DNA from: an uncultured archaeon
GTDB lineage: Archaea; Asgardarchaeota; Thorarchaeia; Thorarchaeales; Thorarchaeaceae
Reading direction: 5' to 3'
Length of the DNA stretch: 64,000 bases
Assembly (NCBI GenBank): GCA_964458565.1
Contig: CAYWJO010000008.1
Coordinates: forward strand, 1-64,000
The first letter of the stretch is position 1; every line of letters starts with the position of its first letter. The position numbers and the translations under genes are program-made. Positions 33,870 through 63,095 of this stretch are shown piece by piece. A model generated the notes under the pieces. That model had not been told where the DNA came from. It did no database searches and saw only the letters and a program-made list of their open reading frames with translations.

Positions 33870-35051
33870 ATGATTTCTGAAAGTTATGACGTCGTTATCG
33901 TTGGAGGTGGACCAGCTGGATCAACTGCAGCTCGTGTTATAGCTGAGAATGGACTTAGTTGTCTCATTCTTGATAGACGTAGAAAAATTGGTATACCGGT
34001 CCAATGCGGAGAATTTCTTCCAACGCCTCGAGAGATGGTATCTCTCTTTCCGAATTCACCCCGAGCACAAAGATTGGTTGATATTCCTAAACATTTGATT
34101 AGGAACAAGTGTGATACCCTTTCATTAGTGTCTCCACGAGAAAAAGAATATGCTTTCAGTATGGAATTCAATGTCATCTCTAGAGACCTATTTGACTTTC
34201 ATCTATCAAATCAAGCTACACAGAAAGGAGCGACACTACTGCTTGAAGCTAATGTGCTTGGGATTCATCAAAAACACTTTGTTGTTTATCGACACCATGG
34301 AGAGACCAAGAAGGTTAAAGCAAAAACAATCATCGGAGCAGATGGACCAAATTCCGTGATTGCTCAATGTATAGGCAGTCGCTACCGAGACCCGCTACGA
34401 GATATGAGTTATTCACTTCAATATGTGATGGAAGGAATTAGTTGCGATTCTGATAGATGCACTATGTTCTTTGGCTCCAATGTTGCACCTGGTGGTTACA
34501 TGTGGATTATTCCTCAAAGTGATTCGAGAGCGAATGTTGGATTTGGTATACGCAGGAAATATGGGACCTCATTGAATCTTCGTGGTATGTTGAACCGCTT
34601 TCTTAAATCAAGGGCAAATCTGAGAAACGGTCAGATTATTCAAAGGGTTGGAGCATTGATTCCTGTGGGTGGACCTAAAAGAACAGTCCATGGCGAGCAT
34701 GTCATTCTCTTAGGAGATGCTGCTGGTCATGTTATGTCAACCAATGGTGGTGGAATTCCGACTGCATTAATTGGGGGTGAAATAGCGGGTGAAACCGTGG
34801 TGGCTGATTCTAAATCAGGTCACTCACTCAAGCAATATGAACAAGCGTGGAGATCCGAAATCGGTAGCGAGCTTTATAGATCACTTGCTATGTTGAGAGT
34901 AGCAGACATCGTAATGAATTCTGACGCACTGACAGAAATTGGAATGCACCTTGCTGGTTCTCGATATCTTGAGGATGTAATCCGCTGTCGTTATCCAAAA
35001 CCACTCGAAGTTCCAGGTCGTTTGTTGGAGTACTTCCTCACTAGAATATAA
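33870..35051 (+). CDS. Geranylgeranyl reductase family flavoprotein
   Basis: GGGPAG, PVQCGE, GADG, PGGYMWIIP, LLGDAAG..NGGGI. Confidence 0.9.
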   Translation: MISESYDVVIVGGGPAGSTAARVIAENGLSCLILDRRRKIGIPVQCGEFLPTPREMVSLFPNSPRAQRLVDIPKHLIRNKCDTLSLVSPREKEYAFSMEFNVISRDLFDFHLSNQATQKGATLLLEANVLGIHQKHFVVYRHHGETKKVKAKTIIGADGPNSVIAQCIGSRYRDPLRDMSYSLQYVMEGISCDSDRCTMFFGSNVAPGGYMWIIPQSDSRANVGFGIRRKYGTSLNLRGMLNRFLKSRANLRNGQIIQRVGALIPVGGPKRTVHGEHVILLGDAAGHVMSTNGGGIPTALIGGEIAGETVVADSKSGHSLKQYEQAWRSEIGSELYRSLAMLRVADIVMNSDALTEIGMHLAGSRYLEDVIRCRYPKPLEVPGRLLEYFLTRI

Positions 35052-36101
35052 TCAGTGCGTACGTATCGATATGAAATCGGCTAAATTCTGAAGTAACACC
35101 TTATTTATTAGCTCAACATTCTGTAGAGCGTTTTTAGCGGCATCAATATACGATTCAGTCTTTTTGATTGCTTTTTGAACTGATTTTGAACTATCTATCA
35201 ATTCAAGGATCGTATCGATTCTTCCGTCTTCTAGCTCCATAATGCATTTCTTGCGGCTTTCAGGAGATGCTGTATCTAGTGCTAGAACCATTACGTAATT
35301 TGTTCTTTTTCTTAGAATATCTGCTAATACCGGTTTTCCTAATTCTTCTTGACTAGCAGTAATATCCAATGTATCATCTCTGATTTGAAAAGCAATACCT
35401 ATGTTTCCTGCATATTCTTCTAATGCTCGGATTTGTTCATCTGTGGCTGAGCCAACTATTGCTCCTACCTTTACCGCTCCTTTCATAAATGATGCCGTCT
35501 TCTGTTCTACCATCCTGAGATATTCTTCTTTTCCGTAAGTACCAAGAGGTTGTGTAGAGAGTAAGATATCATTGGCTTCCCCTTCGCACATTGATATTCC
35601 AAGTGATGCTAGGCTTCTCAAACTATTTGGATCTGAATCTTGTGCAATCATTTTGACCGCATGGGCAACAAGAAGGTCTCCAGCAAGAACTGCCATCCTT
35701 GATCCGTATTTCTTATGTGCTGAACTTACTCCTCTTCTTAGAGTATCATCATCAATGACGTCATCATGAAGAAGACTTGCTGTTTGAACTAGTTCGATTG
35801 CCACTGCGTAAGGAAGAATTCGTTCAATGCTCCCTCCCACTGCCTCACAAGAAAGCATACAGAGTAAGGATCTCAGTCGCTTCCCACCCGCTCTGAGAAG
35901 ATGCATTGCAGTTTCATAAAGTACCTTTGGCTCTCCCATATTGTTGGCCATAAAAGACTCAATTTCAGCCTCAATAAGTGCCATTCTCTTGGATAATTCT
36001 TGGTTTCTTAGAAAAGGCTTCGAGATTTCATCAGTGGAAAATTCAACACCTTCAACAGACTTCTCTTGATTTTCGCCGTTGATGGTAGTTCTATCGTGCA
36101 T
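35052..36101 (-). CDS. trans-polyprenyl diphosphate synthase (likely long-chain); start near 36101 (track gives 36185)
   Basis: GGKRLR, ASLLHDDVIDDDTLRRG (FARM), KTA, FQIRDDTLD (SARM). Confidence 0.9.
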   Translation of the reverse strand: MHDRTTINGENQEKSVEGVEFSTDEISKPFLRNQELSKRMALIEAEIESFMANNMGEPKVLYETAMHLLRAGGKRLRSLLCMLSCEAVGGSIERILPYAVAIELVQTASLLHDDVIDDDTLRRGVSSAHKKYGSRMAVLAGDLLVAHAVKMIAQDSDPNSLRSLASLGISMCEGEANDILLSTQPLGTYGKEEYLRMVEQKTASFMKGAVKVGAIVGSATDEQIRALEEYAGNIGIAFQIRDDTLDITASQEELGKPVLADILRKRTNYVMVLALDTASPESRKKCIMELEDGRIDTILELIDSSKSVQKAIKKTESYIDAAKNALQNVELINKVLLQNLADFISIRTH

Positions 36102-36239
36102 TTTTGCATGACCCAATCCAATCTGATGATTACACATTGAAAGTATGAACCATATAAAAACAGTTAGTTGAAGTCTATCCTGCAATGATAGCTAGGAATC
36201 CTTTTGTACAAGGAGCGTTTCTCGGGTTTACGAGGAGAA

Positions 36240-37322
36240 ATGAATTCGACAGAAGAGAAACGGAATGTTTCAAAAATAAAAGCGTGGCTTCAGGAAGTAA
36301 AATTAGGAATCCTTCCTGCATCAACTGTACCAATCTTTACAGGCACTGCAGTAGCATATGGAATATACGGTGTCTTCTATTGGGATTTGTTTATCACAAC
36401 TCTCATCGCTGGGATTTTTCTCCATTGGGGTGCTGATGTCGCCAATGATTATTTTGACCATACAGAGGAGCAAACTGGAAGTGATGATATCAATGTGGAA
36501 TTCATCCGTCCATATAGTGGTGGGAGTAGAACCATTCAACAAGGACTTTTGACTCCCAAAGAGGTCGCTATAGGCTCAGTAGTCTGCTATCTCATTGCTG
36601 CAATTGTTGGTTTCTATGTTGTTTTCCGCGTTGGTTGGGTTGTTCTTGCATTTGGTCTCATTGGAGCATTTTTCGGTCTCGTATATTCTCTGCCTCCAAT
36701 CAGACTTGTTAAACGAGGTATTGGAGAACTAGTGATTGGAATAGTCTTTGGAGTTCTCATGGTTGTTGGGGCTTTCTATGTGCAGGTTCAGATCCCGATA
36801 GCTTTGACCTGGCCTTTGGTGATTCCATTTGACCAGTTCTATGAACCTTTCTTCATGTCAATTCCCATCTCAATTCTGATTGCATTAGTCTTGTATATCA
36901 ATGAGTTTCCTGATTACGTTGCAGACCGGGATGCAAACAAGCGTACCTTTGTTGTTCGTCTTGGACGCAAAAACGCTGCGAAAGGGTATACATTGCTCTT
37001 GTCAGCTGTCTATGTAGGAATCGTTTTGATGGTACTCTTGAATCTTATTCGAATCGAGGCACTTCTTGCTCTAGGCACATTGCCGCTCGCAGCACTTGGC
37101 ATAGTGACCACACTACGACATTATGATGAGAGTAAGAAATTAGGTCCTGCGAATTGGGCAACAATTGTTGGACATCTCTTCACAGGAATCTTCTTGACAG
37201 TTGGTTATGTATTCCATGGTTTAGCAGTAGCATTGGAAATTACGCTTATAGTTGGAATTGTCCTATTTGCATTTGTTTCCTTAATGGCATGGAAATTGGG
37301 TACTCCTTCAAAGGGCTCCTAA
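36240..37322 (+). CDS. menA: MenA-type UbiA-family prenyltransferase; likely start ATG 36240
   Basis: ANDYFDH..DD, YSGGSRTIQQG, NEFPDYVADRDANKRTFVVRLG; multiple TM helices; GAGGAG before the ATG. Confidence 0.75.
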   Translation: MNSTEEKRNVSKIKAWLQEVKLGILPASTVPIFTGTAVAYGIYGVFYWDLFITTLIAGIFLHWGADVANDYFDHTEEQTGSDDINVEFIRPYSGGSRTIQQGLLTPKEVAIGSVVCYLIAAIVGFYVVFRVGWVVLAFGLIGAFFGLVYSLPPIRLVKRGIGELVIGIVFGVLMVVGAFYVQVQIPIALTWPLVIPFDQFYEPFFMSIPISILIALVLYINEFPDYVADRDANKRTFVVRLGRKNAAKGYTLLLSAVYVGIVLMVLLNLIRIEALLALGTLPLAALGIVTTLRHYDESKKLGPANWATIVGHLFTGIFLTVGYVFHGLAVALEITLIVGIVLFAFVSLMAWKLGTPSKGS

Positions 37323-38542
37323 TTGTAGGTCTCTTCGAGTCCTTCCCACTCGAGACCCATTGCCTTAGCAACAAGAACAGCTAGGTCTATCGAGATTCTA
37401 TCTGAGCCAGCTTCTGGTAGTTGTCCTTTCATGAACTCGACACATGAGGGGCATCCTGATACGACATAATCTGCATTGGTTCTCTCGATATCATCGACTT
37501 TGAGTCTGTTGATATTGACTGCAAACTCATTGTCAATTGCCCGAAGAACTCCTCCTGAACCACAGCAATAGCAATTATTCTTGTTATGTGGTAGTTCTTC
37601 AAATTCTACGCCAGGGAGATATTCAATCACCTTTCTTGGCTCTTCAAAGAATCCTGAGTTACGACCTGCATCACATCCATCATGATAAGTGATTTTCATA
37701 TCAAGTGGAGTATTCAATTCTAGCTTGTTCTGATCAAGTAGGTCCTGATAGAACTGATAACCGTACAGAATTTCAAAATCGTGCTCAATTCCAAGTAATG
37801 AATGATATTCATGAGCCCACATCTTGTAACAACCTGGGCAATTTGTTACTATTTTTTCGACACCGAGTTTCTTGAATGCATCAATGTTATGCTGAGCAAA
37901 AGATTTCGCAGTTTCGAAATCACCAGTCATGATAACAGGAGCTCCGCAACACCACTCATCTTCTCCGAGCATTGTGAACTCTACATCTGCTTTATCCAGA
38001 ATTAGTGAAGTTGCAATTGTTGCTTGAATTGGTACGCCTTTGAATGATGATGCACATCCTACAAAGAAACCTATCTTAGATTCTTGATTCAATTTATCCA
38101 ACAACGCCTCCTCATCTGGATGCCAATAGGACCATCCTTCAACCCTATCCATCTGTGGTTGGCCATTGATATTGAAATCTTTCAACATGGTTTCACGAGT
38201 CATATTGAGTGCTTCTGGCCAAAGCCCTTTTTTGAGAAAATCAGCTCTAAGGCATTGATATACTTCCACAAAGGGGATGTCTACCTGACATATCTCTTCA
38301 CAGCCTCCACAGAGCGTACAACCGAAAATAGCATCTCTTAGTCCAATCAAACCCTCTGAAGGTCTAATTCTACCCTCCATCAAAGCTTTGGCAAGAACCA
38401 TCTTTCCCTTACCCGAATAACTGTCAAGTCGTTTCACTTTGTATGTAGGACAAGCACCATTACCAATCTGGCAGTAACTGCATTGTGCACATTGGTATGG
38501 AGTCTGTTGCAGTCCGTGCTGTTCAAGTGTGGGGAATTTCAT
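37319..38542 (-). CDS. GlcF/HdrD-like Fe-S protein (2 x 4Fe-4S plus two CCG domains); track start 38557
   Basis: CAQCSYC..CP, CTLCGGCEEIC, EWCCG, TNCPGC, YHDGC, CCGSGG, GCPSC. Confidence 0.9.
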   Translation of the reverse strand: MKFPTLEQHGLQQTPYQCAQCSYCQIGNGACPTYKVKRLDSYSGKGKMVLAKALMEGRIRPSEGLIGLRDAIFGCTLCGGCEEICQVDIPFVEVYQCLRADFLKKGLWPEALNMTRETMLKDFNINGQPQMDRVEGWSYWHPDEEALLDKLNQESKIGFFVGCASSFKGVPIQATIATSLILDKADVEFTMLGEDEWCCGAPVIMTGDFETAKSFAQHNIDAFKKLGVEKIVTNCPGCYKMWAHEYHSLLGIEHDFEILYGYQFYQDLLDQNKLELNTPLDMKITYHDGCDAGRNSGFFEEPRKVIEYLPGVEFEELPHNKNNCYCCGSGGVLRAIDNEFAVNINRLKVDDIERTNADYVVSGCPSCVEFMKGQLPEAGSDRISIDLAVLVAKAMGLEWEGLEETYN

Positions 38543-38720
38543 CCTATATCGCTCCAAATGTAGTCAAGTGATAATCTTTCTGGCGGAAATCGGACACAAA
38601 TACTTTTGGTCGTAGCAAGCTGCTGAGCGAAAATCAAATCAGTTCGCTAGCTTTTTATGTTGCCAGATTTCACAAGTGACTCACAAAGCAGCTCCACATT
38701 GAGCTACGGAGAGCGTTCTC

Positions 38721-40655
38721 ATGGGCTTGAAAGTGAAGTACGTGGAACAACTAAAAGAAATATTTGAGGATCGTCTCATTACTGCAAAGCACGAACTTCT
38801 CCTCCAAGGGATTGACGTGGGCACACTTCCAAAACAGGTTGGATGGCTCATGAATCCAAATCCAGATGCTGTGGTACAACCGATATCCCCTGAGGAAATT
38901 CAATCTCTATACAAGTTCGCCAATGAGACAAAGACCCCAATTGTACCTAGAGGGGCAGGGACATCAGGTTACGGGGGTGCGATTCCACGTAAAGGTGGAA
39001 TAGTTGTTGATATTCGTCGAATGGACAAAATCCTTGAAATCGACAAAGAGAATATGACTGTAACAGTGGAGCCAGGAATCACTTGGTCTAATCTACAGTT
39101 CGAACTAAGTCAACACGATCTTGATGTGCCATGTTATCCATCCTCCGGTCTCTCAGCAACAATCAGTGGATGGGTCGCTCAAGGTGGAGACGGTATCGGG
39201 TCTCTTAAGTATGGAAAAGTCAATGATATAGTTGAAGAGTTGCAGGTCGTTCTTCCTGATGGTAGAATAGTCACAACGAAAGATAACGACCTCTTCTGTG
39301 ACACCGAAGGAATTTTGGGAATCATCACAAAGATCACGCTTAAGATAAAACCACTCAGACCAATTCATCCTATTGTTGTCAGCTTTCCTGAGAACTACCA
39401 ACTAGTATTCGCTATTGAGCACATCTTAGAAGAAGGTCCATTACCCTACACAATGAAATTCAAGGAATCCAAATACATTGACTTGAAGAAGAGAGCTTGG
39501 GATAGCGATGAGCCCTTCCCATTCCCCGTACATCATGGTGTCTTGATGGTCGCCTATGAGGGTGATGATATAGAAGAAGGCTTTCGAGTTGTTGAAGCGG
39601 TCACAGAGAAATTTCAGGGGACCGTCTATGACCAGCATGTTGCTGACCATGAATGGGAAGAGAGATTCTACCCGATGAAGATAAAGAAACTTGGTCCTAC
39701 CCTTGTTGTTGGCCAAGCATTTGCACCACTTGAAACTCTTGAGGCGCTCCTTGATGATTTCCATTGGGAACAAGCTTCAGCAGAAGCAGGTATGGATGGT
39801 TGGGTGACGACGAAAAATGGTGTGACCCTCATGGGTTATTTCCTTGAAGATGAACGTCGAAGATTATTCATGCTCTCCTGGTCTCAAAGCTTCCTCATCT
39901 GGAAGCTCGCGCAAAGGCATGGTGGTCACCCTCACAGCACAGGCATATGGTTTGCCAACTATGCACCGCAGTACTTTGGAAAACGGAGACTCGCTAGGAT
40001 TCGTGCTGCGAAGACTGAACTTGACTCGAAGAACGTATCGAACCCTGGTAAGATATTCGCTTACTGGTTACCCTGGATGCTTCGAATTGGGAAGTATTTC
40101 ATGTGGATTACTTTCGACATGATGCGAAATGGATTCGGTAGAAGCGCACCCCCCTATCTTCGATTGTTGCAGAATATGCCTCCAATCAAATGGATTCTCC
40201 GATGGGGTAGGGCACACAGTCCTTGGCCGCTTCAGTATGGTCTAGGTTGTTGCATGGTAGAAGGTGCTGCCGCAGTTGCTTCAAGATGGGACTTCGAACG
40301 TTTCGGAATGCTACCACTCTTCGCACCAAGGCAGACCGATGTGTTATGGATTTCTGGATCCCTTACAAAGAAGATGGCAAAGCGTCTCAGAAGAATCTAT
40401 GAACAGATGCCTGAACCCAAGTTCGTTATTGCTTATGGCCAATGTGCTGCGAGTGGCGGCATGTTTTGGGATGGCTACAGTCTCATTTCACCACCTGACT
40501 CAGTTGTACCTGTAGATGTTTACGTACCTGGATGTCCACCAAAACCATCCGATCTCATGCGAGCACACATTATTCTACAGAACAAGATTCGCGCTGGTAC
40601 AACTCACTGGCAACAAAACTATGAGAATCAAGATGCTATGGGATTCTGGAAATAG
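38721..40655 (+). CDS. FAD-linked oxidoreductase (GlcD/VAO family) fused to a C-terminal NuoB-like domain
   Basis: PRGAGTSGYGG, TISGW, TEGILGIIT, NPGK; then GLGCCMVE..DFERFG..PRQTD..YEQMPEPKFVIAYGQCAASGG..VDVYVPGCPP in one frame. Confidence 0.9.
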   Translation: MGLKVKYVEQLKEIFEDRLITAKHELLLQGIDVGTLPKQVGWLMNPNPDAVVQPISPEEIQSLYKFANETKTPIVPRGAGTSGYGGAIPRKGGIVVDIRRMDKILEIDKENMTVTVEPGITWSNLQFELSQHDLDVPCYPSSGLSATISGWVAQGGDGIGSLKYGKVNDIVEELQVVLPDGRIVTTKDNDLFCDTEGILGIITKITLKIKPLRPIHPIVVSFPENYQLVFAIEHILEEGPLPYTMKFKESKYIDLKKRAWDSDEPFPFPVHHGVLMVAYEGDDIEEGFRVVEAVTEKFQGTVYDQHVADHEWEERFYPMKIKKLGPTLVVGQAFAPLETLEALLDDFHWEQASAEAGMDGWVTTKNGVTLMGYFLEDERRRLFMLSWSQSFLIWKLAQRHGGHPHSTGIWFANYAPQYFGKRRLARIRAAKTELDSKNVSNPGKIFAYWLPWMLRIGKYFMWITFDMMRNGFGRSAPPYLRLLQNMPPIKWILRWGRAHSPWPLQYGLGCCMVEGAAAVASRWDFERFGMLPLFAPRQTDVLWISGSLTKKMAKRLRRIYEQMPEPKFVIAYGQCAASGGMFWDGYSLISPPDSVVPVDVYVPGCPPKPSDLMRAHIILQNKIRAGTTHWQQNYENQDAMGFWK

Positions 40656-44659: not shown

Positions 44660-44677
44660 TGGTTGGAGGTAAAAATT

Positions 44678-47092: not shown

Positions 47093-47105
47093 TTTGCTAA
47101 GACAG

Positions 47106-47137
47106 AGCAACCATCACAGGTCATCTTGTTGGTTGCT
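47106..47137 (+). terminator. Possible hairpin after ccmF
   Basis: AGCAACCA ... TGGTTGCT inverted repeat. Confidence 0.35.
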
Positions 47138-47915: not shown

Positions 47916-47926
47916 GTTCCTGCTCT

Positions 47927-49894: not shown

Positions 49895-49904
49895 TTATTT
49901 CACC

Positions 49905-53567: not shown

Positions 53568-53588
53568 TTTGTTCTCCTCTTAATTTCT

Positions 53589-54092: not shown

Positions 54093-54094
54093 TA

Positions 54095-54688
54095 TTATGC
54101 CCTCCTGATGATATAGATTGCTAATATGATCATTATAATCCCAACAAGCGGTATCAGTATAAACATCATTGTGTACCAAATGCTGATGAGTTCAGCAGGA
54201 TCAACTGGTTCAGTAGGTGTGAATCCAGTTGTTGCTCCTTCAACATCAACTTCGATATCAACACTATTCGCGTTTGGATATTCTCCACCGACCCAAATTC
54301 TAAGAGTATACTGTCCTCCTACTAAAGGTGTCACTTCTATTTCTACAGAAATTTCGCCTTCTGCAGAATTTGTGTCACCAGCACCATTGTCATGGACCAC
54401 TTGTGTGGAATAATCAAACATATCGTTGTCAACAGTACTCCAAGATTTTTCTATACGCAAGAGAATGGCGCCTCCAGTGGCATCTATGGTTACTGTGAAT
54501 GGTTCATCAACTGAAGCCGCCACAGTCCCTGTAACATCTGTGTTGATATTGATTGATGCAGCATTATCATGGCATCCTCCACACTCAGCTGTTTGGGTCA
54601 AAGTTGCTGAAACTATATTCGCTCCAGCGGTAACAATAAGAATTGTGCTTAGGAAACCAAAAATAAGAATCATATGGGTTCTCTTCAT
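54095..54688 (-). CDS. Monoheme c-type cytochrome with beta-sandwich domain and C-terminal TM anchor; likely start ATG 54688
   Basis: Signal peptide, CGGCH just after it, C-terminal TM helix plus RRA; GGTGA upstream. Confidence 0.7.
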   Translation of the reverse strand: MKRTHMILIFGFLSTILIVTAGANIVSATLTQTAECGGCHDNAASININTDVTGTVAASVDEPFTVTIDATGGAILLRIEKSWSTVDNDMFDYSTQVVHDNGAGDTNSAEGEISVEIEVTPLVGGQYTLRIWVGGEYPNANSVDIEVDVEGATTGFTPTEPVDPAELISIWYTMMFILIPLVGIIMIILAIYIIRRA

Positions 54689-54915
54689 TGTTTCACCGTA
54701 TCCGCATTTTCCATTCAAATTTTACAATTTGAATTTCGATTTGAAACCAAATGAATGATATATGAGCATATCGGAATATTCCTTATTCTCTCACACTGTA
54801 TAAACAGTTACACTTGGAAGCCAATTAACGTATAAATGGTTTCGAGATATAATTAGCTGATGGAATTAGCTATCCTCTTCTATATATTTTGAATAAGAAT
54901 TTAATCAAATGATTA

Positions 54916-56640
54916 CTATTTGTTCCAAATTCGACCCATTAGACGTAAAAATGGTAGAGCTAATGAAAAAGCCAAATTCAGTGTCATTAAGTGAGCCATA
55001 ATGTAACCCAAGATACCTCCCCCGATACTGCCAAGAATAAAAACTGGTATTGGAAAATTTGGTAATATAGGATTCATTAAGAATTCAGTAAGCCAACTCA
55101 ATCCTAGTAAAGGTGGACCAAATAGAGCTGCAATCAAAAATACGATTGCTCCTGCGATAAATCCAGCTGCTTGTGTCTTCCTACCTGGAATAACTCTTCC
55201 ACCAAAGACTTTCATTGGATTCATTAGATTATTGGGATCTACTTTCTGTTTCAAACTTCGGAGTGCATAGTATAGATCTTTGCCAAAGAAATCTTCTGAA
55301 TATTTGGCATTCCACAATCCTATTGCATATGGCTTACCGCCATAGCGTACAGCTCTGGATGTAATCTCGAAAGGTCGATACCATCCAGCTAGGTATGAAT
55401 ACTTGTTTCGCTCATCATCAAGGACCCATGCAAGAAAACCAGTGAAACCATCTTTGCTAATGGTACCTTCCACTGCGAATTTTTCCCACTCGATTGAACT
55501 TGATATTTCCATATAGAACTCATTTAGATTCTCAAGTGGAATCAGTACTTCAGATGGTACAATGCTGGGACCATATCTCTTTATTCGAAGTGGAAAAAGC
55601 CTTTCTCTCCAATAATAGCTAGCCCGTTCTTCACTTAATATGATTCCTCCTGTTTCTTTCAGAATTATATCAATGAATTCTAAGCTATCATCATTTTCGT
55701 AAATCGTATTCATCAAAGCTCCAGTCAGAATAAACTCGTTCATTTCAGAATCGTACCCAATGAGTGCTTTGAGTTTTGATGTATAATTATCAGCAAGAAA
55801 GCGAAGATTGAATGGTTTTGCTTTTTCTAGAATCAATATTGCTGCTTTCATCAGAGTCTCCATGTCATGGAATGCACAAGCAAAGGGTCTCAGCTGCAGC
55901 ATGGGTACTATCTTGAGAGTAGCTTTTGTGATAAAACCAATCGTTCCATATGTTGCTACTACTGCTTCGAGGAGGTTATCATGTGGAAAATTTTCTTCTA
56001 ACCAACTACATTCATTCTCATCTAACGGATCGTTTTCTAACACCAATTTTCCTATTCGAACTATTTTGCCATTGGCTAGCACGACCTCGAGACCAAGAAT
56101 CTGATCTGCAATTTCACCAAACATAGCAGAGCCAATTCCAATACCTCCACTAGCTATGAATCCTCCAACAGTTGCAGCAGTTGCACTTGATGGATAAACA
56201 GGAAGTGTTGATCCCAGCTTTTCTAAAAACATCAATAGTTCTCTGTATATTATACCTCCCTCTACTGTCACAGTAAGTCCAAAATTATCAAGGTGTAATA
56301 TCGTTGACATTCGATTGAAATTCACGCATATTCCAGCCTTAGCAGGAATTGCACCTCCCCATCCCGAAGTCCCGCTGCCTCTTGGTACTAAGGGCATCTT
56401 TTTTTCATTCGCGTACAACACAAGCCTCCGAAGAGATTCCACCGTTCTTGGCTGAGCGATTAGATCAAATTTTTTTCTAATTATCTGCTCGGTCAGACTT
56501 GGTAAACTAGCTACATCGTTTTCGTATGCAACGCAAGACTCTCTAATGGTTGAAACTCCATCAGCTCCAACAATGTCTTCTATATGTTGGATCTCCGTGC
56601 TATCTAAATTGACCACTACTCCTTTTCCTCCTTGAGACAC
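54916..56640 (-). CDS. FAD-linked oxidoreductase (GlcD-like) with C-terminal TM helices
   Basis: PRGSGTSGWGG, ATVGGF, TYGTIGFIT, DPNNLMNP; hydrophobic tail. Confidence 0.88.
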   Translation of the reverse strand: MSQGGKGVVVNLDSTEIQHIEDIVGADGVSTIRESCVAYENDVASLPSLTEQIIRKKFDLIAQPRTVESLRRLVLYANEKKMPLVPRGSGTSGWGGAIPAKAGICVNFNRMSTILHLDNFGLTVTVEGGIIYRELLMFLEKLGSTLPVYPSSATAATVGGFIASGGIGIGSAMFGEIADQILGLEVVLANGKIVRIGKLVLENDPLDENECSWLEENFPHDNLLEAVVATYGTIGFITKATLKIVPMLQLRPFACAFHDMETLMKAAILILEKAKPFNLRFLADNYTSKLKALIGYDSEMNEFILTGALMNTIYENDDSLEFIDIILKETGGIILSEERASYYWRERLFPLRIKRYGPSIVPSEVLIPLENLNEFYMEISSSIEWEKFAVEGTISKDGFTGFLAWVLDDERNKYSYLAGWYRPFEITSRAVRYGGKPYAIGLWNAKYSEDFFGKDLYYALRSLKQKVDPNNLMNPMKVFGGRVIPGRKTQAAGFIAGAIVFLIAALFGPPLLGLSWLTEFLMNPILPNFPIPVFILGSIGGGILGYIMAHLMTLNLAFSLALPFLRLMGRIWNK

Positions 56641-57836
56641 TTAGCAACAAGCTCAGCTAAATCCAACCTGTCTATTGAATAATTGATTGAATTGAATGCG
56701 ATATCGAATGCAATCTTGCATCTTGGACACTCAGTCACAAGGAGTGTAGCAGGAGTTACAGATACCTCTCTACATCTTCTCTCTGCAATTCTTGAAGCCA
56801 TTAGTGGGTCTACGCTACTCAAGAGGGCATGGTTTCCACAGCACTTTGTTTCCTTCTCTGAAGCCAACATTTCAACATTGTATACTCCCGGGATTCTTTC
56901 GATAACATCTCTTGGTTCTCGCGTAATCCCTAGTCTTCTGGCGGAAACACAAGGATCATGAAATGTTGCTGTAATCATTGGCTGTTCTTCATATTCAAGT
57001 CTGCCCTCTGCATTCAACCTGTGTATGAATTGTGAAGTAGTTAAAAGTTCAAATTCCTTAGCAATCGATACTCCAAGAAATTCTCTATAAACGGTCCGCC
57101 AGGTATTGATACAAGAAGGACAACTAAACACAATGGTGTTAACACCCAAATCTCTCATTAAGTCAGTATTCTTATTTGCTAATTCAGGAGCACTTTCGTA
57201 GTCTCCTGTCCATAATAAAGGAGCTCCACAGCAAACTTCCTGCTCTCCTAAAAGAGTAAAGTCAACATCAGCGTGCTGCATGATTTTTACCATTGATCGC
57301 GGTATTCCTTGCACCTGTGCCTTCATAGTAGCGTTGCATCCTGCAAAATATGCAACACTCGCATTTCTCCTGATATGGGGATTCACCATGTCTTCAATAC
57401 CTTCTGCCCATATCATACGATTACCTGGTCCCATCCAAAACGGGTCTCCGTATTTCAACATGGAGTCCCGAATTGCCTGAATTGGTGCTGGTAAGAGTCC
57501 TGCTTTAGCCGCTTCAGCTCTGGTGAGTTCCCAGAATCGATCTAATTGTATAGACGTTGTACAAACTGATGAGCAATGTTCACAAAGACTGCAAAGGAAA
57601 ATCTTTCTTGCAAATTCTTCATCAAAGTCTGCTTTACCTTCGAAAATTGATTTCATTACGGAAAGCTTACCTCGAGGACCGTATTGCTCCCATTCCATTT
57701 CATTGAACACTGGACAAACCATTGTGCAATTTCCGCATGAAGCACATACATAGGGTTCTGCCTTCTGTCCCTTCATTCGAAGTGCTTCAAAGTCAGTCAT
57801 GGAATAGTCCTCGGAGTCATTTGCTACTTTTTTCAC
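56616..57836 (-). CDS. GlcF/HdrD-like CCG Fe-S protein
   Basis: CASCGNCTMVCP, CSLCEHCSSVC, VCCG, SCPSC, HDPC, KCCG, ECPRC. Confidence 0.9.
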   Translation of the reverse strand: MKKVANDSEDYSMTDFEALRMKGQKAEPYVCASCGNCTMVCPVFNEMEWEQYGPRGKLSVMKSIFEGKADFDEEFARKIFLCSLCEHCSSVCTTSIQLDRFWELTRAEAAKAGLLPAPIQAIRDSMLKYGDPFWMGPGNRMIWAEGIEDMVNPHIRRNASVAYFAGCNATMKAQVQGIPRSMVKIMQHADVDFTLLGEQEVCCGAPLLWTGDYESAPELANKNTDLMRDLGVNTIVFSCPSCINTWRTVYREFLGVSIAKEFELLTTSQFIHRLNAEGRLEYEEQPMITATFHDPCVSARRLGITREPRDVIERIPGVYNVEMLASEKETKCCGNHALLSSVDPLMASRIAERRCREVSVTPATLLVTECPRCKIAFDIAFNSINYSIDRLDLAELVAKCLKEEKE

Positions 57837-57857
57837 AGGGAGCTTAAAGAAGTCTTG

Positions 57858-57879
57858 GGAGTGCCTGTTATGGCACTCC
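57858..57879. terminator. GC-rich intergenic hairpin
   Basis: GGAGTGCC tgttat GGCACTCC between co-oriented genes. Confidence 0.45.
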
Positions 57880-57893
57880 TCGTTTCAGAATGA

Positions 57894-59222
57894 TTATGTG
57901 AAGTCTTCTGTCATCTCTTTTGCACATGCAATACCGGATCTAGATGCAGCTTCCATTGAGGCATAATAGATTCCGCAATTTGCATGTGAACCGGCAACAT
58001 ATAGGCCTTCAACGCCAGTTCTGTTTGTTTTCAGCCGGTCTCCTAAAATACCTGGGGGTTGAGCTAATAGTGATCTCCATATCTTCCAACTCTTCTTCCA
58101 TGTGACCTTGTCCTGAACACCTGGTATCAGTTCCTTTAGTTCATCAAGGATTGCAGATGTTGCTTCTTCGTCGCTCATTTTGAGAAGCTCCTTGTCGATA
58201 CTAGTAACTGTCAAGAGTGACTCTCCGATAGGTGCTAAGACTCCTGAAACTCTTTTCGCCTCAGCAATGATATTAATTTTCTTTCCAGGAACAAATCCAC
58301 CTACGTTGAAGTCAAGGACACGAGATGAGAGTCCGAAATATGCGACAGTCGAAGGTACATATGAAAACTTCTTACATGCATTAGTAAAATCACTGGGTAA
58401 TTTGTTCATATTCACAAGGTTTGGAAGTAAATCAATTGGAGTTGTGATTACAGCAATGTCAGTTTCAACGGTATAATCAACACCGTCCTGTTCATATTCC
58501 ACTGCATGTACCTTATTATCTTCAATCACTACTTGCTTTACGGTACAATTGACTTTTGGTTCAACAGCAAAGTTACGTGCTTGTAGCATGAGTGTATAGG
58601 GAACACTACCAAGACCGCCTCTTTCTGGATACATTGCAACGAATCCATCTTCATACGCAAAACGCATTTTCTCTGATTGGAGGTATTGTCCTGCTGAAAC
58701 CTCCTGTGGTGTCATAAATGTGGTGGTACGAATTAGTGGGTCATAGAAATCATTGAGAATCTCTTCAGACATCTTATCCTCAGCATATTCAGCGAATGTC
58801 ACATTGTCAAGTTGTGCGAATTCCTCATCAGGTCTCCGAATGTTATCCTGAACAATAGTCCCTAGTTTAGCTCTATCGCCTCGATCCAAGAGACCAAACC
58901 TTGCTAAGTCTGTAACTGACTGACGCATGACATATCTCTCGCCACCTTTCAGCCAAACTGCTCCTTCACCAACTGTTGTCATTCGAATCCCGCTTCTTTC
59001 AAGAATCGGTATAAGGGACTTGAAGCCACCTACGAAGAAGTGAAGACCTTGATCAAAGACATAACCAGACTCAGTGTATGAACGAGCCCTTCCTCCAACA
59101 GTTTTTTCTTTTTCTAGAATTGTACATCGTGCTTTCAAACCTTTCAGTTCAAGGGCGCAACTGAATCCTGCGATTCCAGCTCCCACAATGATGACTTTCG
59201 TTCCTCTTTTCTTTTCACTCAT
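57894..59222 (-). CDS. FAD-dependent oxidoreductase of the amine oxidase / phytoene desaturase / protoporphyrinogen oxidase superfamily
   Basis: VGAGIAG, GGRARS..GYVFDQGLHFF, GLYVAGS..ASMEAASRSG. Confidence 0.82.
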   Translation of the reverse strand: MSEKKRGTKVIIVGAGIAGFSCALELKGLKARCTILEKEKTVGGRARSYTESGYVFDQGLHFFVGGFKSLIPILERSGIRMTTVGEGAVWLKGGERYVMRQSVTDLARFGLLDRGDRAKLGTIVQDNIRRPDEEFAQLDNVTFAEYAEDKMSEEILNDFYDPLIRTTTFMTPQEVSAGQYLQSEKMRFAYEDGFVAMYPERGGLGSVPYTLMLQARNFAVEPKVNCTVKQVVIEDNKVHAVEYEQDGVDYTVETDIAVITTPIDLLPNLVNMNKLPSDFTNACKKFSYVPSTVAYFGLSSRVLDFNVGGFVPGKKINIIAEAKRVSGVLAPIGESLLTVTSIDKELLKMSDEEATSAILDELKELIPGVQDKVTWKKSWKIWRSLLAQPPGILGDRLKTNRTGVEGLYVAGSHANCGIYYASMEAASRSGIACAKEMTEDFT

Positions 59223-59226
59223 TTTC

Positions 59227-60351
59227 TTATTCCTCCACTACAGATGACCTTGCTAGGTCTAGAATCAATTCATCCAACTGAATAACTTCAATATCGAAAT
59301 CTCGTGCGTTATAACTCAAATTCTTGAAACAAGATATACAGGTTGTAATGAGACCATCCGCACCAGTATCAACAGCTTCTTGGACACGCTTCTTACCAAC
59401 TGCCTCAGCGAGATCGGGATCTAGAACTGCGAGAAAACCTCCACAACAATTGGAATTCTCATGATTTCCAGCCATTTCTCTTAATTCAATACCTGGAATT
59501 CCACGAATAATCTCTCGGGGTGCTTCATAGATACCAAGAGCACGACCAAGATGACAACTATCATGAAATGTATACACTCCCTCCAAGCTCTTGAACGTTA
59601 GAACACCATTCCGAACCATATCTGCTATGTACTCAACGGTATGATGTACTTCAATATCGAACTCAGGGATAAGACGTTTGTAATGCTCTGCAAGTGTTCC
59701 GAAACATCCACCACAACCTGTGACAATGTGGTCCACTCCTGCTTTTTTGAAGGCATCATAATTCTTTTGGGCAATCTCCTTGAATCCTTTATCATCACCA
59801 GCCCAATAATTCATTAGCCCACAGCAGACTTCACTTGGTATATATCCTGCATTTATCTTCAATTTCTCCATCAGGTCTACAACCATCTCAGATTGATCTG
59901 GGAAATAATATGAACCCATACACCCACTGAAGATCGCAGTGTTGGATTCAGGTGGCAGTTCTAAGTCCTCGGCCCAGACATCTCGGTCTTCGCCCTCGAA
60001 TCCAATAAAAGGCGTTCCCTCTTGCTTTACCCAGGCCAATACTTGGATGAGCGAGTCTGACATCTTACCACCACTATTGAGTAGTGATGCTTTTGCGTCA
60101 TGCCAAATGTCAGTGACAGGCACATTTGCAGGACAGACTGCCTCACACATTCGACAATCTGCACAGTATAGTCGATTCAGTAGTTCTTGTGGTGGATTCC
60201 ACATCTTCTCTCGATAAGCTCTAAGAGCTCGTATTTTTCCTCCTGGACTGTCTAATTCCGAACCAAGTTGTTGATACATGGGACAGAAGTCTCGACAGTA
60301 ATTGCAAGAGCCACAATGTCGTAGTAGTTTATCATCTATGTCAATCTTCAC
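59227..60351 (-). CDS. GlcF/HdrD-like CCG Fe-S protein
   Basis: CGSCNYCRDFCP, CADCRMCEAVCP, VCCG, GCGGC, HDSC, NCCGG, TCISC. Confidence 0.9.
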   Translation of the reverse strand: MKIDIDDKLLRHCGSCNYCRDFCPMYQQLGSELDSPGGKIRALRAYREKMWNPPQELLNRLYCADCRMCEAVCPANVPVTDIWHDAKASLLNSGGKMSDSLIQVLAWVKQEGTPFIGFEGEDRDVWAEDLELPPESNTAIFSGCMGSYYFPDQSEMVVDLMEKLKINAGYIPSEVCCGLMNYWAGDDKGFKEIAQKNYDAFKKAGVDHIVTGCGGCFGTLAEHYKRLIPEFDIEVHHTVEYIADMVRNGVLTFKSLEGVYTFHDSCHLGRALGIYEAPREIIRGIPGIELREMAGNHENSNCCGGFLAVLDPDLAEAVGKKRVQEAVDTGADGLITTCISCFKNLSYNARDFDIEVIQLDELILDLARSSVVEE

Positions 60352-60358
60352 TTCTGAA

Positions 60359-61882
60359 TCACGCTCCTATGAACTTCGAGAGCCATCTAAACTTAGTGGC
60401 AAGTTGGAAAAGGATATCGATTCGACCATATGATGTCAAACATGATGTAATCCTATCAGGATTCATGATGTTAAGAGGATCCCATTCCTCTTTCGCCCTC
60501 TTGATTTCTTCGTATTTTATCGGATATGCTCTCTTCATATAGATGCTATTTTGTAAACCAATGGTATATGGTGCTCCACCATGACTAATGGACTTCTTCA
60601 CCATTTTGTGAAGAACTCCCTTACTGGCGATAAATTTCAGATAATGATCTGGATTTATCATAGCAAACAATTCAATACGCATGAACTCTTGCGTTCCCAA
60701 CATACCGTACCAGAGGGCAGGTACTTTGTGTGAAACTCTGTAGTCTTCGTATTTCTTTAATAAATCGTATACAGATTCTAGCGGAACCCAGAGTTCTTGA
60801 AACATGAGTGTTTCGCAGTGTTCCTTTGGATTAAATTCTGAATCATGTCTTAGTTCCCACTCTTTATCTGAAAACTCTTCACCTAAGAATTCTCCTCCAT
60901 GACCCGTAGTTGCTGCTTCAAGTTCAAATTTACTAGTGGGATCGAAATTTTGCAGTATAGCATCTGAAGAATAGGTTACAGTCAGGACAAAGTTTCCTTT
61001 CTCCAAAGGATTGCTATACTTCTGCAGTTCCTTGTCTGCAATCTTCAAGAAGATTGGTTTGTATGCCATTTTGGTAATTTCTCGCACAGCAAGGCAGAGA
61101 TGCTCTAATCTTTTGAATCCGTACGAGTAGGTTTCGTAATTCTCAGGTTGCTTGTGTACCTTAAGAGTGACCTCTGTAATAACACCAAGTATTCCATAAG
61201 ACCCGCAAATAATTCCAGCTTCTTCTCCTGTAAGTGTCATCATTTCACCATCAGGTTTGACAACTTTGAGTTCAAGAATGTGGTCCTCGAGTATGCCATA
61301 GAATGGAGTACCAATCCCCGCACGTCCACCACACCCAATCCAACCGCCAATGACTGCAGATTTAGCGCTGGTTGGATAGATGCCAAAGGTTAATCCCTTT
61401 TTTACAAGTTGTTTTTCAAGAGCATCGAAAGTGACGCCTGGTTCAACTGTTACATATTCTTGGTCTTCGTTTATTTCCAGAATATGATTCATGAGTTTTA
61501 TATCCAATGAGATACCACCTCGTGTTGGACTTGATGAGCCCAAACAACTCGAAGCGCCGCCTCTTGGAATCACTGGCACCTTAGATGCATTGGCAATCCT
61601 CAATACGCTCTGTACTTCTTCAACTGAAGTAACTCGAACAACATAATCCACAAGGCTTTTTCTCTTCCATCGATAATGGAACTGTGGTAGTGACGCCGGA
61701 TCACCACTATACACGATTCTCTCAAGTTCCATATCTGAAGCACGACTTTCCCCCACAACAGCTATAAGCTGATTTAGTATTGGGTCAACATCTTGTCCTT
61801 CTTCAGGAATAGGCTCCATCTTTTTTCCAGTTTCTTCATCAGCAGGAGATACCTCAGTTTCTACTTTGTCTTCGCTTCCCAT
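60359..61882 (-). CDS. FAD-linked oxidoreductase (GlcD-like); likely start ATG 61882 (track gives 61930)
   Basis: PRGGASSCLG, AVIGGW, GSYGILGVIT, DPLNIMNP. Confidence 0.88.
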   Translation of the reverse strand: MGSEDKVETEVSPADEETGKKMEPIPEEGQDVDPILNQLIAVVGESRASDMELERIVYSGDPASLPQFHYRWKRKSLVDYVVRVTSVEEVQSVLRIANASKVPVIPRGGASSCLGSSSPTRGGISLDIKLMNHILEINEDQEYVTVEPGVTFDALEKQLVKKGLTFGIYPTSAKSAVIGGWIGCGGRAGIGTPFYGILEDHILELKVVKPDGEMMTLTGEEAGIICGSYGILGVITEVTLKVHKQPENYETYSYGFKRLEHLCLAVREITKMAYKPIFLKIADKELQKYSNPLEKGNFVLTVTYSSDAILQNFDPTSKFELEAATTGHGGEFLGEEFSDKEWELRHDSEFNPKEHCETLMFQELWVPLESVYDLLKKYEDYRVSHKVPALWYGMLGTQEFMRIELFAMINPDHYLKFIASKGVLHKMVKKSISHGGAPYTIGLQNSIYMKRAYPIKYEEIKRAKEEWDPLNIMNPDRITSCLTSYGRIDILFQLATKFRWLSKFIGA

Positions 61883-61886
61883 ATCA

Positions 61887-63095
61887 TCACATCCTAAATA
61901 ACACACCGAGATAAACCCCAGTAAATCCAAGTAATGTCCAAAGAATAACAGCAGGAAGTCCTAGATTACATGTCTTCCATCCACCAAGATGTGTAAGGAA
62001 TGCAAGTGTGCCAAGAATCATGCTAGTAATTCCAATCCAAATATGCCAACAATGTATGAAAGTTAACATATTTGTAAGGTCGAATAGATACTGCGGGTTC
62101 ATATTGTTCCATGTTGATGGTCCTTCGAGTAAGAGAAATAGGACATTAATTGATGTGAGGATATATGCCAGACTGAGCATGATTCCATGTCCTCTAGTGA
62201 ATCGCTCCTCATCATAATATTCTAAGGCTGTACCAATGTATGCTAACACCAACGCAGGTAATCCCAAATACCATCCATAATGTAATTGTGGAATCTCAAT
62301 AGGTTCCACTGGGATGAATCCTGCAACATATGAGTTCACACCTGATTCAGTTTCTAGTCCATCAATATCAGACGCGATCACCTTGTAAAGTACTTCAGTA
62401 CCATAAACTTGAGCTGGAATATCGCCATCATAATAATATGAAGACACTTCAGTCATAGTGACGTTATTCCATGATGTCCCATTATTGATTGAGTATGAAA
62501 GAATGACTTCATCAATATCTGCGGTTGATTGCAAGGTGGCATTTATTGTAACATCTTCATTTGCTGGAGGATACTCAGAACTCTGACCAATACTTGTAAA
62601 GATAGGTCCTTCTCCAGAAGCAGCAACGGTGACAGTTACACTCACTTGATCATTATTTTGTGAACTACCAACTGCAAAAAGAGTTAGAGTATATTCTCCT
62701 GGAAACGCAGGAGCAGTTATGGTATATGAGATGGTCATTGCACCAGATGCTGGGTTATCATCACCCTCCCCATTATCGTAAACTCCACCCTGTGCATTCT
62801 CAGGGGATATATCGAAATTGGTATTATCGTCAACATCTCCTGGGAATTTAGCATAGAGATACGATAATGAACCTCCACCGGTTATATCTACATCCAACTG
62901 AAATTCTTGACCAGTTTCTGTTGATATAGATGATGGTGCACTTATCGAGATTGTTCCTGTATTATTGTGGCATGAAGCACAGTTAATATCATAGGTACTG
63001 TTTGCTCCAACAAATCCTATTGATACAACAATAACCGCGACTAAACACGATGCAATAAGGATGCCAATTTTTGTGTTCCTTTTCAACTGAGTCAC
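61887..63095 (-). CDS. Monoheme cytochrome c + Ig-like domains fused to a His-containing 4-TM (cytochrome b-like) domain
   Basis: Signal/TM, CASCH, beta-rich domains, then TM helices flanked by LHYG, GHGIM, IHCWHIW, THLG. Confidence 0.65.
   Translation of the reverse strand: MTQLKRNTKIGILIASCLVAVIVVSIGFVGANSTYDINCASCHNNTGTISISAPSSISTETGQEFQLDVDITGGGSLSYLYAKFPGDVDDNTNFDISPENAQGGVYDNGEGDDNPASGAMTISYTITAPAFPGEYTLTLFAVGSSQNNDQVSVTVTVAASGEGPIFTSIGQSSEYPPANEDVTINATLQSTADIDEVILSYSINNGTSWNNVTMTEVSSYYYDGDIPAQVYGTEVLYKVIASDIDGLETESGVNSYVAGFIPVEPIEIPQLHYGWYLGLPALVLAYIGTALEYYDEERFTRGHGIMLSLAYILTSINVLFLLLEGPSTWNNMNPQYLFDLTNMLTFIHCWHIWIGITSMILGTLAFLTHLGGWKTCNLGLPAVILWTLLGFTGVYLGVLFRM

Follow-up and report, generated by a model that had tools for sequence, protein, structure and literature searches.

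A two-layer gene island of Thorarchaeia, probably serving respiratory electron transfer between cytoplasmic flavins and the cell surface

By what parts, and in which direction, would a thorarchaeon pass respiratory electrons across its cell boundary? The question is raised by an island of flavoprotein, iron–sulfur (Fe-S), cytochrome c, and prenyl-carrier genes located at positions 33870–63095 of a 64,000-nt stretch (the window) of contig CAYWJO010000008.1 (assembly GCA_964458565.1, Thorarchaeaceae). Thorarchaeota are usually pictured as fermenters, acetogens, and sulfur reducers. The gene inventory of the window was composed of a six-frame open reading frame (ORF) listing plus Pfam and NCBIfam family searches, and the comparison covered 87 genomes and 17 genera of Thorarchaeia (Thor), with the cytochrome neighbourhoods compared at 33 loci; gene content, topology signals, motif conservation, synteny, and co-inheritance were read directly from these data. 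All gene classes listed by an earlier sequence-only reading of this DNA were found intact at 33870–63095: the prenyl-carrier genes (menA-like, prenyl synthase, and reductase) at 33870–37322, four flavin adenine dinucleotide (FAD)-dehydrogenase/CCG pairs recovered by Pfam, one multihaem and two monohaem c cytochromes with CxxCH-type motifs and anchors, histidine-bearing membrane domains (invariant histidines in 5TM_b and cyt1-4TM_d), and the Ccm machinery (CcmA, B, C, E, and F by Pfam; CcmD by position). The island is real and conserved, with known kinds of parts in an arrangement not found described, and it is probably a two-layer respiratory island of Thorarchaeia that moves electrons between cytoplasmic flavins and the cell surface.

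The island was composed of two layers: (i) a core layer present in most Thor genera and containing the MenA-like, prenyl synthase, GGR, CCG_a, and FAD-NuoB genes, which occurred with or without cytochromes in nearly all Thor genera; and (ii) an accessory 22-kb block (40926–63095) present in 5/17 genera and containing a ten-gene run, the multihaem cytochrome MHC8, its surface partner, and the Ccm system. The single island of the sequence-only reading was thus upheld as a co-inherited set and divided into two separable layers, of which only the 22-kb cytochrome block was patchy. The ten-gene run (50653–63095, minus strand, tightly packed) had, by rising coordinate and with transcription reversed, the order FAD_b, CCG_b, 5TM_b, cyt1_b, FAD_c, CCG_c, AmOx, CCG_d, FAD_d, and cyt1-4TM_d, and this order was identical in the genera g1, g3, g6, g8, and g12. 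The block was contiguous with nuo and carrier genes in the genomes G048, G085, and G044; it lay after the last nuo gene in G048, upstream of CCG_a in G085, and between FAD-nuoB and nuoA in the window, from which it follows that the block moves as a unit around a fixed core.

MHC8 was detected in 34/87 genomes, cyt1-4TM_d in 39/87, and CcmC in 40/87, all within the same five genera; the three markers were all present in 31/87, all absent in 42/87, and mixed in 14/87 (mostly fragmented MAGs, i.e., metagenome-assembled genomes). A Fisher test of this co-occurrence treats related genomes as independent and hence overstates the association. Within genus g6 alone, 14 genomes had all three markers and nine had none, and this within-genus pattern together with the strict gene order argues for one functional unit. 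Synteny and co-occurrence across genomes, named as a check by the sequence-only reading, were borne out in that the same genes stood together in five genera and co-varied over the 87 genomes. Beyond Thor, three of the five genomes of Asgard family f16 (L088:624-8124, L089:6378-13890, and L091:770-8217), as well as one f10 genome, contained a cytochrome-free six-gene run within about 2 kb after nuo antiporter genes, composed of FAD_b-like, CCG_b-like, AmOx-like, MenA-like, GGR, and prenyl synthase genes. These runs indicate that the Thor cytochrome block is younger and more narrowly distributed than the linkage of a NuoEFG-less pump to carrier genes and a flavoprotein/HdrD-like pair.

The four flavoproteins of the island, each with FAD_binding_4 and FAD-oxidase_C domains, each lay next to a protein with two [4Fe-4S] motifs and two CCG domains. 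One pair belonged to the core layer (see below), and the remaining three were the minus-strand pairs of the ten-gene run: (i) FAD_b (50653–52383), a VAO-type flavoprotein by Pfam with two C-terminal membrane helices (hydrophobic at 496–544), plus CCG_b (52383–53567), an HdrD/EtfD-like Fe-S protein with Fer4 and two CCG domains; (ii) FAD_c (54916–56640), a VAO-type flavoprotein by Pfam with C-terminal membrane helices at 494–565, plus the HdrD-like Fe-S protein CCG_c (56616–57836, Pfam); and (iii) FAD_d (60359–61930), a VAO-type flavoprotein by Pfam in which no transmembrane (TM) segment was found, plus the HdrD-like Fe-S protein CCG_d (59227–60351, Pfam). Two CCG motifs were found in each of the four CCG proteins, and their layout of Fer4-type plus two CCG domains fits HdrD/EtfD; the closest solved relative of CCG_b was EtfD (9ojn, E 9.5e-30). 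The best PDB matches of the flavoproteins were LctD and D-lactate dehydrogenase (D-LDH), with the VAO-type fold of GlcD, D-lactate, and D-2-hydroxyglutarate dehydrogenases. All four carried a GGxP(Y/H) motif where D-LDH has metal-binding GEHG (D-LDH GEHGIG aligned opposite GRPYSIG), and they scored far under all curated GlcD, D-LDH, and YdiJ models (GlcD equivalog, 134–148 bits vs cut-off 568); on these motifs and scores they are placed in a separate clade of the VAO family.

Between CCG_c and CCG_d lay AmOx (57894–59222, minus strand), a phytoene-desaturase/HpnE-like flavoprotein (PF01593) with plant phytoene desaturase as its best PDB match (5mog, E 8e-12). AmOx orthologues at 74–83% identity occurred only in the five island genera and shared the cytochrome distribution, and homologues at 38–39% identity adjoined MenA-like genes in another Asgard family. 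Three further flavoprotein/CCG pairs, likewise devoid of the metal site, were present in the host genome G000 (C4:43289-46986, C56:10151-12758, and C36:15138-18006), giving seven pairs in total. Many relatives also possessed an extra module absent from the window (L068:7455-10533 of G044, L071:16556-19690 of G085, and L015:3775-6453 of G005), in which a CCG protein (26–28%) and a FAD_d-like flavoprotein (35%) accompany a short 4-helix protein that resembles the C-terminal domain of cyt1-4TM_d.

The core pair was made up of CCG_a (37319–38557, minus strand; Fer4_8 plus two CCG domains), an HdrD-like Fe-S protein with 68–72% identity and the same divergent position in relatives, and its divergent partner FAD-NuoB (38721–40655, plus strand), a VAO-type flavoprotein fused to NuoB (FAD_binding_4, FAD-oxidase_C, and Oxidored_q6). 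The NuoB domain was C-terminal and scored 187 bits with its subfamily model (cut-off 116), and FAD-NuoB orthologues, at about 74% identity, were present in nearly every genus of the class, cytochrome-free genera included. About 540 bases beyond the window, contig positions 64543–76129 carried NuoA, J, K, C, D, H, and I plus four antiporter-like subunits; this nuo operon had no NuoB of its own, and no E, F, or G gene was present in the locus. The genome had a single NuoD and three Oxidored_q6 matches, two of them on other contigs, and FAD-NuoB is the only NuoB candidate for the one complex I-like pump that the genome encodes. The NuoEFG-less 11-subunit layout (Fpo/NDH-1 type) was found, with B coming from the fusion at 38721–40655. 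The NuoB fusion of the sequence-only reading was therefore present, with a score over the NuoB cut-off, and is no orphan, being the only candidate B subunit for the pump whose other genes start at 64543. Identity of the pump as a group 4 membrane-bound NiFe hydrogenase was rejected: its NuoD-like protein has GPQHVAAHG close to the N terminus, and the CxxC nickel-binding pairs expected at the two ends are missing.

Gene order in four genera of relatives was prenyl synthase, MenA-like, CCG_a (divergent), FAD-NuoB, a 3-TM protein, and nuoA onward, and the 3-TM homologue came directly after FAD-NuoB in G044, G085, G048, and G007. In the window, this usual downstream gene of FAD-nuoB (36–41% identity in relatives) was located at 63319–63864 (plus strand), followed beyond the window end by nuoA at contig position 64543; the 22-kb stretch 40926–63095 thus separates FAD-nuoB from the remainder of its operon.

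The membrane and outer-face parts of the ten-gene run were all on the minus strand. 5TM_b (53589–54092, 167 aa), a DUF2231-family membrane protein and candidate haem b carrier, had invariant H4, H9, H11, and H48; a longer ORF starting at 54179 was dropped, the extension being not conserved. Its relatives carried PF09990 in precomputed Pfam and NCBI names, which supports a DUF2231 lead from the ESM Atlas (0.87), and its AlphaFold2 (AF2) model was all-helical (predicted local distance difference test 82). No published function was found for DUF2231. The adjacent cyt1_b (54095–54718), its position kept in relatives, was an exported monohaem cytochrome c on a beta-sandwich, with CGGCH after an N-terminal hydrophobic segment and a C-terminal TM segment. 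The other monohaem protein, cyt1-4TM_d (61887–63095, 402 aa), was composed of a monohaem c site (CASCH; Cx2-5CH in relatives), two Ig-like domains, and a 4-helix membrane domain; the last was conserved far better than the outer Ig-like domains. Its invariant H272, H303, H348, H351, and H369 lay near both membrane faces, a placement expected for two b haems, and haem b binding is predicted from such histidines for both 5TM_b and the 4-helix domain of cyt1-4TM_d. The AF2 model of cyt1-4TM_d consisted of two beta-sandwiches followed by four long helices, the whole-protein model matching tandem Ig/FN3 folds only in the fold search, and the family comprised 135 Thorarchaeota 'hypothetical proteins'. 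A fourth candidate c-type cytochrome was observed elsewhere in G000 (contig C6:53124-56936, minus strand): a 1271-aa open frame for a giant surface protein with a signal-like segment, a CGGCH domain 36% identical to cyt1_b, about 12 Ig/HYR-like repeats, and a C-terminal anchor.

MHC8 (40926–42305, plus strand), the genome's sole ORF with at least three CxxCH motifs, had nine haem-type sites (six CxxCH, two Cx4CH, and CMHCQ) and hydrophobic anchors at its N and C termini; all its haem-type sites, one odd site aside, were invariant in relatives. Its profile matched OcwA best in the PDB (6I5B, E 1.7e-17), followed by NrfA (1.4e-11), with octahaem nitrite reductases and MccA also ranking after OcwA, and the Cytochrom_C552 Pfam family (C-terminal helical region) scored 38.6 bits (cut-off 24.1). 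By these matches MHC8 is assigned to the OcwA/NrfA superfamily, with covalent haem and surface location predicted; the CxxCK catalytic haem motif of NrfA was not found in it. Next to it lay a conserved exported surface partner of 722 aa (42491–44659, plus strand), with a signal, an (alpha/alpha)6-barrel-like domain, beta-sandwiches, and a C-terminal anchor, which followed the cytochrome in 26/33 loci, one Heimdallarchaeota locus among them. It showed weak matches only to the GlcNAc 2-epimerase/GH88 clan (the Heimdall homologue being over the Pfam cut-off), no match in a PDB sequence search, and none usable in the ESM Atlas; 14 N-glycosylation sequons and a very basic tail were also observed. 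OcwA-like cytochromes of the MHC8 type were present in two further Asgard families, and in a Heimdallarchaeota MAG the cytochrome adjoined both the surface partner and ccmF.

The Ccm genes for cytochrome maturation followed at 44663–50594, CcmA, B, C, E, and F being all present and contiguous, the composition of archaeal System I: ccmF (44663–47092, plus strand; Cytochrom_C_asm, CcmF_C, and TPR; WGGYWGW motif), encoding a haem lyase with a C-terminal TPR tail; a gene for an FMN reductase/iron–sulfur-flavoprotein-like protein (FMN, flavin mononucleotide; 47277–47915, plus strand; PF03358, E 2.5e-28) with an N-terminal Cys cluster, which stood between ccmF and ccmE in 10/33 loci; and, on the minus strand, archaeal-type ccmE (47927–48301; PF03100) whose product ends in CPSKY (a CxxxY variant), a gene for a CcmD-like 45-aa membrane peptide (48307–48444), ccmC (48449–49117; PF01578, E 5.7e-31; WGTPWNW motif), ccmB (49184–49894; PF03379), and ccmA for the ABC ATPase (49905–50594; PF00005). 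The CcmD-like peptide, with one hydrophobic helix, was assigned by its position between ccmC and ccmE alone. The relatives had CcmA at the corresponding place, with 57–66% identity. The TPR tail of CcmF (46700–47092, about residues 700–809) was unmatched by tblastn in the relatives examined, where alignments stopped near 687–699. A weak TPR match on this tail was the only match to the CcmH family in the island, no genome-wide CcmH search having been made. The ccm genes, cyt1-4TM_d, 5TM_b, and the MenA-like gene were all single copy and all on the island contig; since the island holds the genome's only multihaem ORF, the clients of Ccm are essentially the island cytochromes plus the cyt1_b-like giant protein of contig C6.

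The carrier genes opened the island: (i) a GGR-family flavoprotein gene for prenyl-chain reduction (33870–35051, plus strand; GG-red-SF 242.6 bits vs cut-off 158.8; GGR_cat Pfam), adjoining the prenyl synthase gene in relatives too; (ii) a polyprenyl diphosphate synthase gene (35052–36185, minus strand; PF00348, E 5e-63); and (iii) a gene for a MenA-like UbiA-family prenyltransferase (36204–37322, plus strand; PF01040; NDxxD and DxxxD motifs), proposed to prenylate the carrier head group and present in 15/17 genera. The residues before the first Asp-rich motif bear on chain length in prenyl synthases; here Ala and Ser stood 5 and 4 positions ahead of the first DDxxD, and such small residues suggest a product longer than C20. 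The best NCBIfam models of the MenA-like protein were all 1,4-dihydroxy-2-naphthoate prenyltransferases, none of which passed (133 vs 264; 74 vs 102). A membrane-lipid role of the trio (geranylgeranyl diphosphate synthase, digeranylgeranylglyceryl phosphate synthase, and lipid GGR) was rejected, given that the best models of the prenyltransferase were all MenA-type; moreover, none of the seven g4 genomes, whose completeness reaches 96%, yielded the gene, an absence that is implausible for an essential lipid enzyme. Two extra genes were observed between the MenA-like gene and CCG_a in G048 (L074:1943-3695), G005, G007, and G044, one encoding a fusion of a DUF7530 membrane domain with a PNPOx-like domain and the other a further PNPOx-like protein; no copy of either was found in the host genome. 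PNPOx-fold proteins include F420H2-dependent quinone reductases, and those of the relatives may represent another carrier-linked enzyme.

The host MAG (3.73 Mb, 93% complete, 5.2% estimated contamination) contained the island on a contig that runs past the window to 102 kb. GC was even along the window, and CdhC of the same contig showed 81–85% identity to Thorarchaeota relatives, so the contig is taken as genuine Thorarchaeia DNA. The cytochrome-bearing relatives were public Candidatus Thorarchaeota MAGs, including SMTZ1-45 and the closed chromosome CP070761.1, and homologues of two island proteins were nearly all labelled Thorarchaeota; taxonomy and possible chimerism of the contig, raised by the sequence-only reading, were settled by the CdhC identity, the even GC, and the recurrence on the closed chromosome. 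A repeat search across 33–64 kb found no flanking repeats or mobile-element signature, and a bacterial promoter/terminator scan gave no more than shuffled sequence did, its bacterial models being not applicable to archaea. The first 25 kb of the window carried a tetrahydromethanopterin (H4MPT) Wood–Ljungdahl set (Fwd, Ftr, Mch, Mtd, CdhABCDE, and an HdrA-MvhD fusion). McrA was not found in the host genome, and the host was accordingly rejected as a methanotroph or methanogen. Between the Wood–Ljungdahl genes and the island lay the HdrA-MvhD fusion with a polyferredoxin (20612–24450) and then two NosD-like beta-helix surface proteins (25016–29568); none of these neighbours was found in the island-flanking regions of relatives. 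The sequence-only reading had linked the island to this Wood–Ljungdahl cluster, and that link found no support in synteny: CdhC was 590 kb from the island in a complete relative and on other contigs elsewhere. A functional tie between the two was rejected, the two being unlinked in relatives, and their adjacency is incidental.

For protein contacts, haem b binding, carrier use, direction of flow, and acceptor, we infer the following working of the island. Three modules would have the look of a split EtfD/HdrDE, each with a cytoplasmic flavoprotein, an HdrD-like Fe-S protein, and an invariant-His membrane protein that probably holds haem b, and two of the three would also possess an outward-facing monohaem cytochrome c. 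Electrons would pass from the cytoplasmic flavin via the HdrD-like clusters to the membrane haems, either directly or by a carrier pool shared with the pump, and from there to the outer-face monohaem cytochromes and on to the nine-site MHC8, which would exchange them with an acceptor outside the membrane. Mechanistic precedents for this chain come from the nearest solved relatives, EtfD (an electron wire) for CCG_b and OcwA for MHC8. Outward flow, as respiration on an external or surface-accessible acceptor, is favoured. Some Thorarchaeia probably pass respiratory electrons to or from the cell exterior; it is a more tentative proposal, and one we hold with less than even confidence, that some of them respire to extracellular acceptors or partner cells through an undescribed VAO flavoprotein/HdrD-like/haem b/monohaem c module, a complex I with flavoprotein-fused NuoB, and a prenylated carrier.

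Several observations weigh against such a respiratory chain. In all four flavoproteins the His/His/Glu metal site of 2-hydroxyacid dehydrogenases (HxxDGNxH and GEHG) was missing, no DGN or EHG being present; of the electron chain drawn by the sequence-only reading, one co-inherited unit linking flavin/Fe-S, membrane-His, and outer-cytochrome parts is retained, and substrate oxidation by the flavoproteins is kept as no more than a possibility. The odd site of MHC8 (41487–41501) read CMHCQ here and CMHCM in six aligned relatives, with the two cysteines and the intervening Met-His invariant, and the 5TM_b model had no significant Foldseek match (best STEAP2, E 0.18). The MenA-like protein fell under every MenA cut-off, and MqnA/D (PF02621) and MenB, the two ring-pathway markers searched, were not found over cut-off in five family genomes including this one; given the failed MenA models and the ring pathway not found, the carrier is best called a prenylated, menaquinone-like molecule. 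The carrier genes of the sequence-only reading stood, and quinone use by the island is presumed. Haem supply poses a similar problem, in that AhbA/B (PF17805), ferrochelatase (PF00762), and AhbD over cut-off were not found in two island-bearing genomes (G000 and G005); haem may come by uptake or by an undescribed pathway, or the genes may have been missed in 93%-complete MAGs. Finally, the cytochrome-free flavoprotein/CCG/desaturase trio with carrier genes in f16 fits a biosynthetic or carrier-linked role equally.

The last point is the starting place of one alternative, in which the flavoprotein/CCG pairs and the desaturase-like protein make or tailor the prenylated carrier (head-group or side-chain chemistry) and only the cytochromes and Ccm are respiratory. 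The f16 run does join a pair, AmOx, and carrier genes without cytochromes, AmOx resembles isoprenoid desaturases, the flavoproteins have no hydroxyacid dehydrogenase site, and no known ring pathway was found in the genome; however, three to five paralogous pairs beside haem-type membrane proteins and exported cytochromes are unlike a biosynthetic pathway, NuoB of the pump is itself joined to one of the flavoproteins, and EtfD, which among solved structures is nearest to the CCG proteins, acts as an electron wire, and we rate carrier tailoring as the least likely of the three biological alternatives. Slightly less improbable, and still unlikely, is that MHC8 is an enzyme for a soluble substrate (nitrite, hydroxylamine, or sulfur/selenium oxyanions) and that the block serves detoxification or anaerobic respiration of a conventional kind: after OcwA, the profile of MHC8 matches NrfA, octahaem nitrite reductases, and MccA, the protein has the C-terminal helical region of that family (Cytochrom_C552), and OcwA itself slowly reduces nitrite and hydroxylamine, but MHC8 has no CxxCK and a non-canonical CxxCQ or CxxCM site, carries an anchor at each end, occurs together with a large surface partner, and has no NrfH/NrfBCD-type partners.

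The other doubt concerns direction, since no sequence fixes it. In a reversed flow, the surface cytochromes would draw electrons from reduced minerals, humics, or a partner and feed the flavin/Fe-S modules, the pump, and Wood–Ljungdahl CO2 reduction; the full H4MPT Wood–Ljungdahl set in the genome, the usual treatment of the group as acetogenic, and the reversibility of OcwA-type cytochromes over a wide potential range (PMC6703420) are in keeping with it. It is nevertheless doubtful, and is ranked level with the soluble-substrate enzyme, because the whole family has the Wood–Ljungdahl genes, at sites unlinked to the island, whereas the island itself is optional, and because low-potential CO2 reduction from typical extracellular donors needs reverse electron transport via a single pump. 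An artefactual grouping, whether a chimeric or contaminant contig or a chance neighbourhood, is scarcely credible: the 5.2% estimated contamination of the MAG is set against even GC, Thor-like Wood–Ljungdahl genes on the same contig, recurrence of the island on long contigs and on closed chromosome CP070761.1, and strong co-inheritance. The two-layer respiratory island with outward flow is kept as the preferred reading.

Thor and related genomes have been stated to be without extracellular cytochromes or haem-handling proteins (PMC8072921, PMC7997004, and PMC9723726): one published Thor MAG was stated to lack extracellular cytochromes and Helarchaeota were reported without multihaem cytochromes, and haem-handling proteins were given for all Asgard proteomes except Thor (PMC7997004). 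A broad preprint on Asgard respiration treated complex I-like enzymes and cytochrome c for Heimdallarchaeia only. A full-text literature search turned up no account of c-type cytochromes, Ccm genes, or this island for Thorarchaeia; it did not cover subscription-only papers, so an earlier mention is possible. The sequence-only reading had likewise named no account of the assembly as a unit. The island would be a variant of known respiratory systems in a lineage where such respiration is unexpected, and its stand-out features are a flavoprotein class fused to complex I, a quinone-like carrier without a detected ring pathway, and cytochromes without detected haem-synthesis genes. If the proposed working is true, the placement of abundant sediment Thorarchaeia in iron, manganese, humic, or partner-linked electron flow changes, and the direct transfer of electrons from an Asgard host to a bacterial partner, proposed in syntrophy models of eukaryote origin, would have identifiable genes behind it.

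Comparison with known systems was made part by part. OcwA of Thermincola potens (6I5B) is a nine-haem surface terminal reductase that acts on iron oxides and electrodes and also reduces nitrite and hydroxylamine at a slow rate, and cytochromes of its type are reversible across a wide potential range (PMC6703420). MHC8 shared with OcwA about nine haem sites, the NrfA-type C-terminal helical region, and a predicted surface location, but it is archaeal, has N- and C-terminal anchors and two Cx4CH sites, has Gln (Met in relatives) replacing one His, and is accompanied by a large surface partner of (alpha/alpha)6 type, with a CcmF gene of its own adjacent. The Ccm system resembled archaeal System I (Allen et al. 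2006, as represented in PMC4429474) in having CcmABC(D)EF, the CxxxY motif of CcmE, and no CcmH seen in the island, and it differed in the TPR tail on CcmF in this genome and in the FMN-reductase-like gene within the ccm cluster. Extracellular electron transfer in ANME-2 (anaerobic methanotrophic archaea), Methanoperedens, and Ferroglobus/Geoglobus likewise combines an H4MPT pathway, membrane carriers, Ccm, and surface multihaem cytochromes (PMC9012536 and PMC4429474); in contrast, MHC8 is OcwA/NrfA-like with nine sites instead of a very large S-layer-linked cytochrome, and electrons would enter via flavoprotein/HdrD-like/haem b/monohaem c modules instead of Rnf, Fqo, or cytochrome b systems.

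In EtfD, the wire from the FAD of ETF (electron-transfer flavoprotein) to menaquinone is built from two 4Fe-4S clusters, two further clusters bound by CCG domains, and a haem b domain of five helices, and the EtfD fold overlays HdrDE (PMC13083937). The island modules resembled mycobacterial EtfD (9OJN) and Methanosarcina HdrDE in their two 4Fe-4S motifs plus two CCG domains and in the proposed flavin-to-membrane-haem-b wiring, and they differed in three respects: (i) the Fe-S, membrane, and flavoprotein parts were separate genes; (ii) the flavin donor was VAO-type instead of ETF; and (iii) the membrane parts were a DUF2231 protein and a 4-helix domain fused to cytochrome c instead of a NarI-like five-helix domain. 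Unlike for HdrDE, no heterodisulfide chemistry is implied for the island. The pump side was closest to Fpo-like plus HdrD of Methanomassiliicoccales and to the hypothesised Fpo-HdrD-GlcD of Ca. Methanomethylicia, which, as set out in a preprint (bioRxiv 10.1101/2022.08.18.504445), also join a NuoEFG-less 11-subunit pump with HdrD-like and GlcD-like proteins; the Thor system differed from these in having no Mcr, carrier-synthesis genes alongside, and its flavoprotein fused to NuoB, and this covalent fusion provides genetic evidence for such a flavoprotein on the pump.

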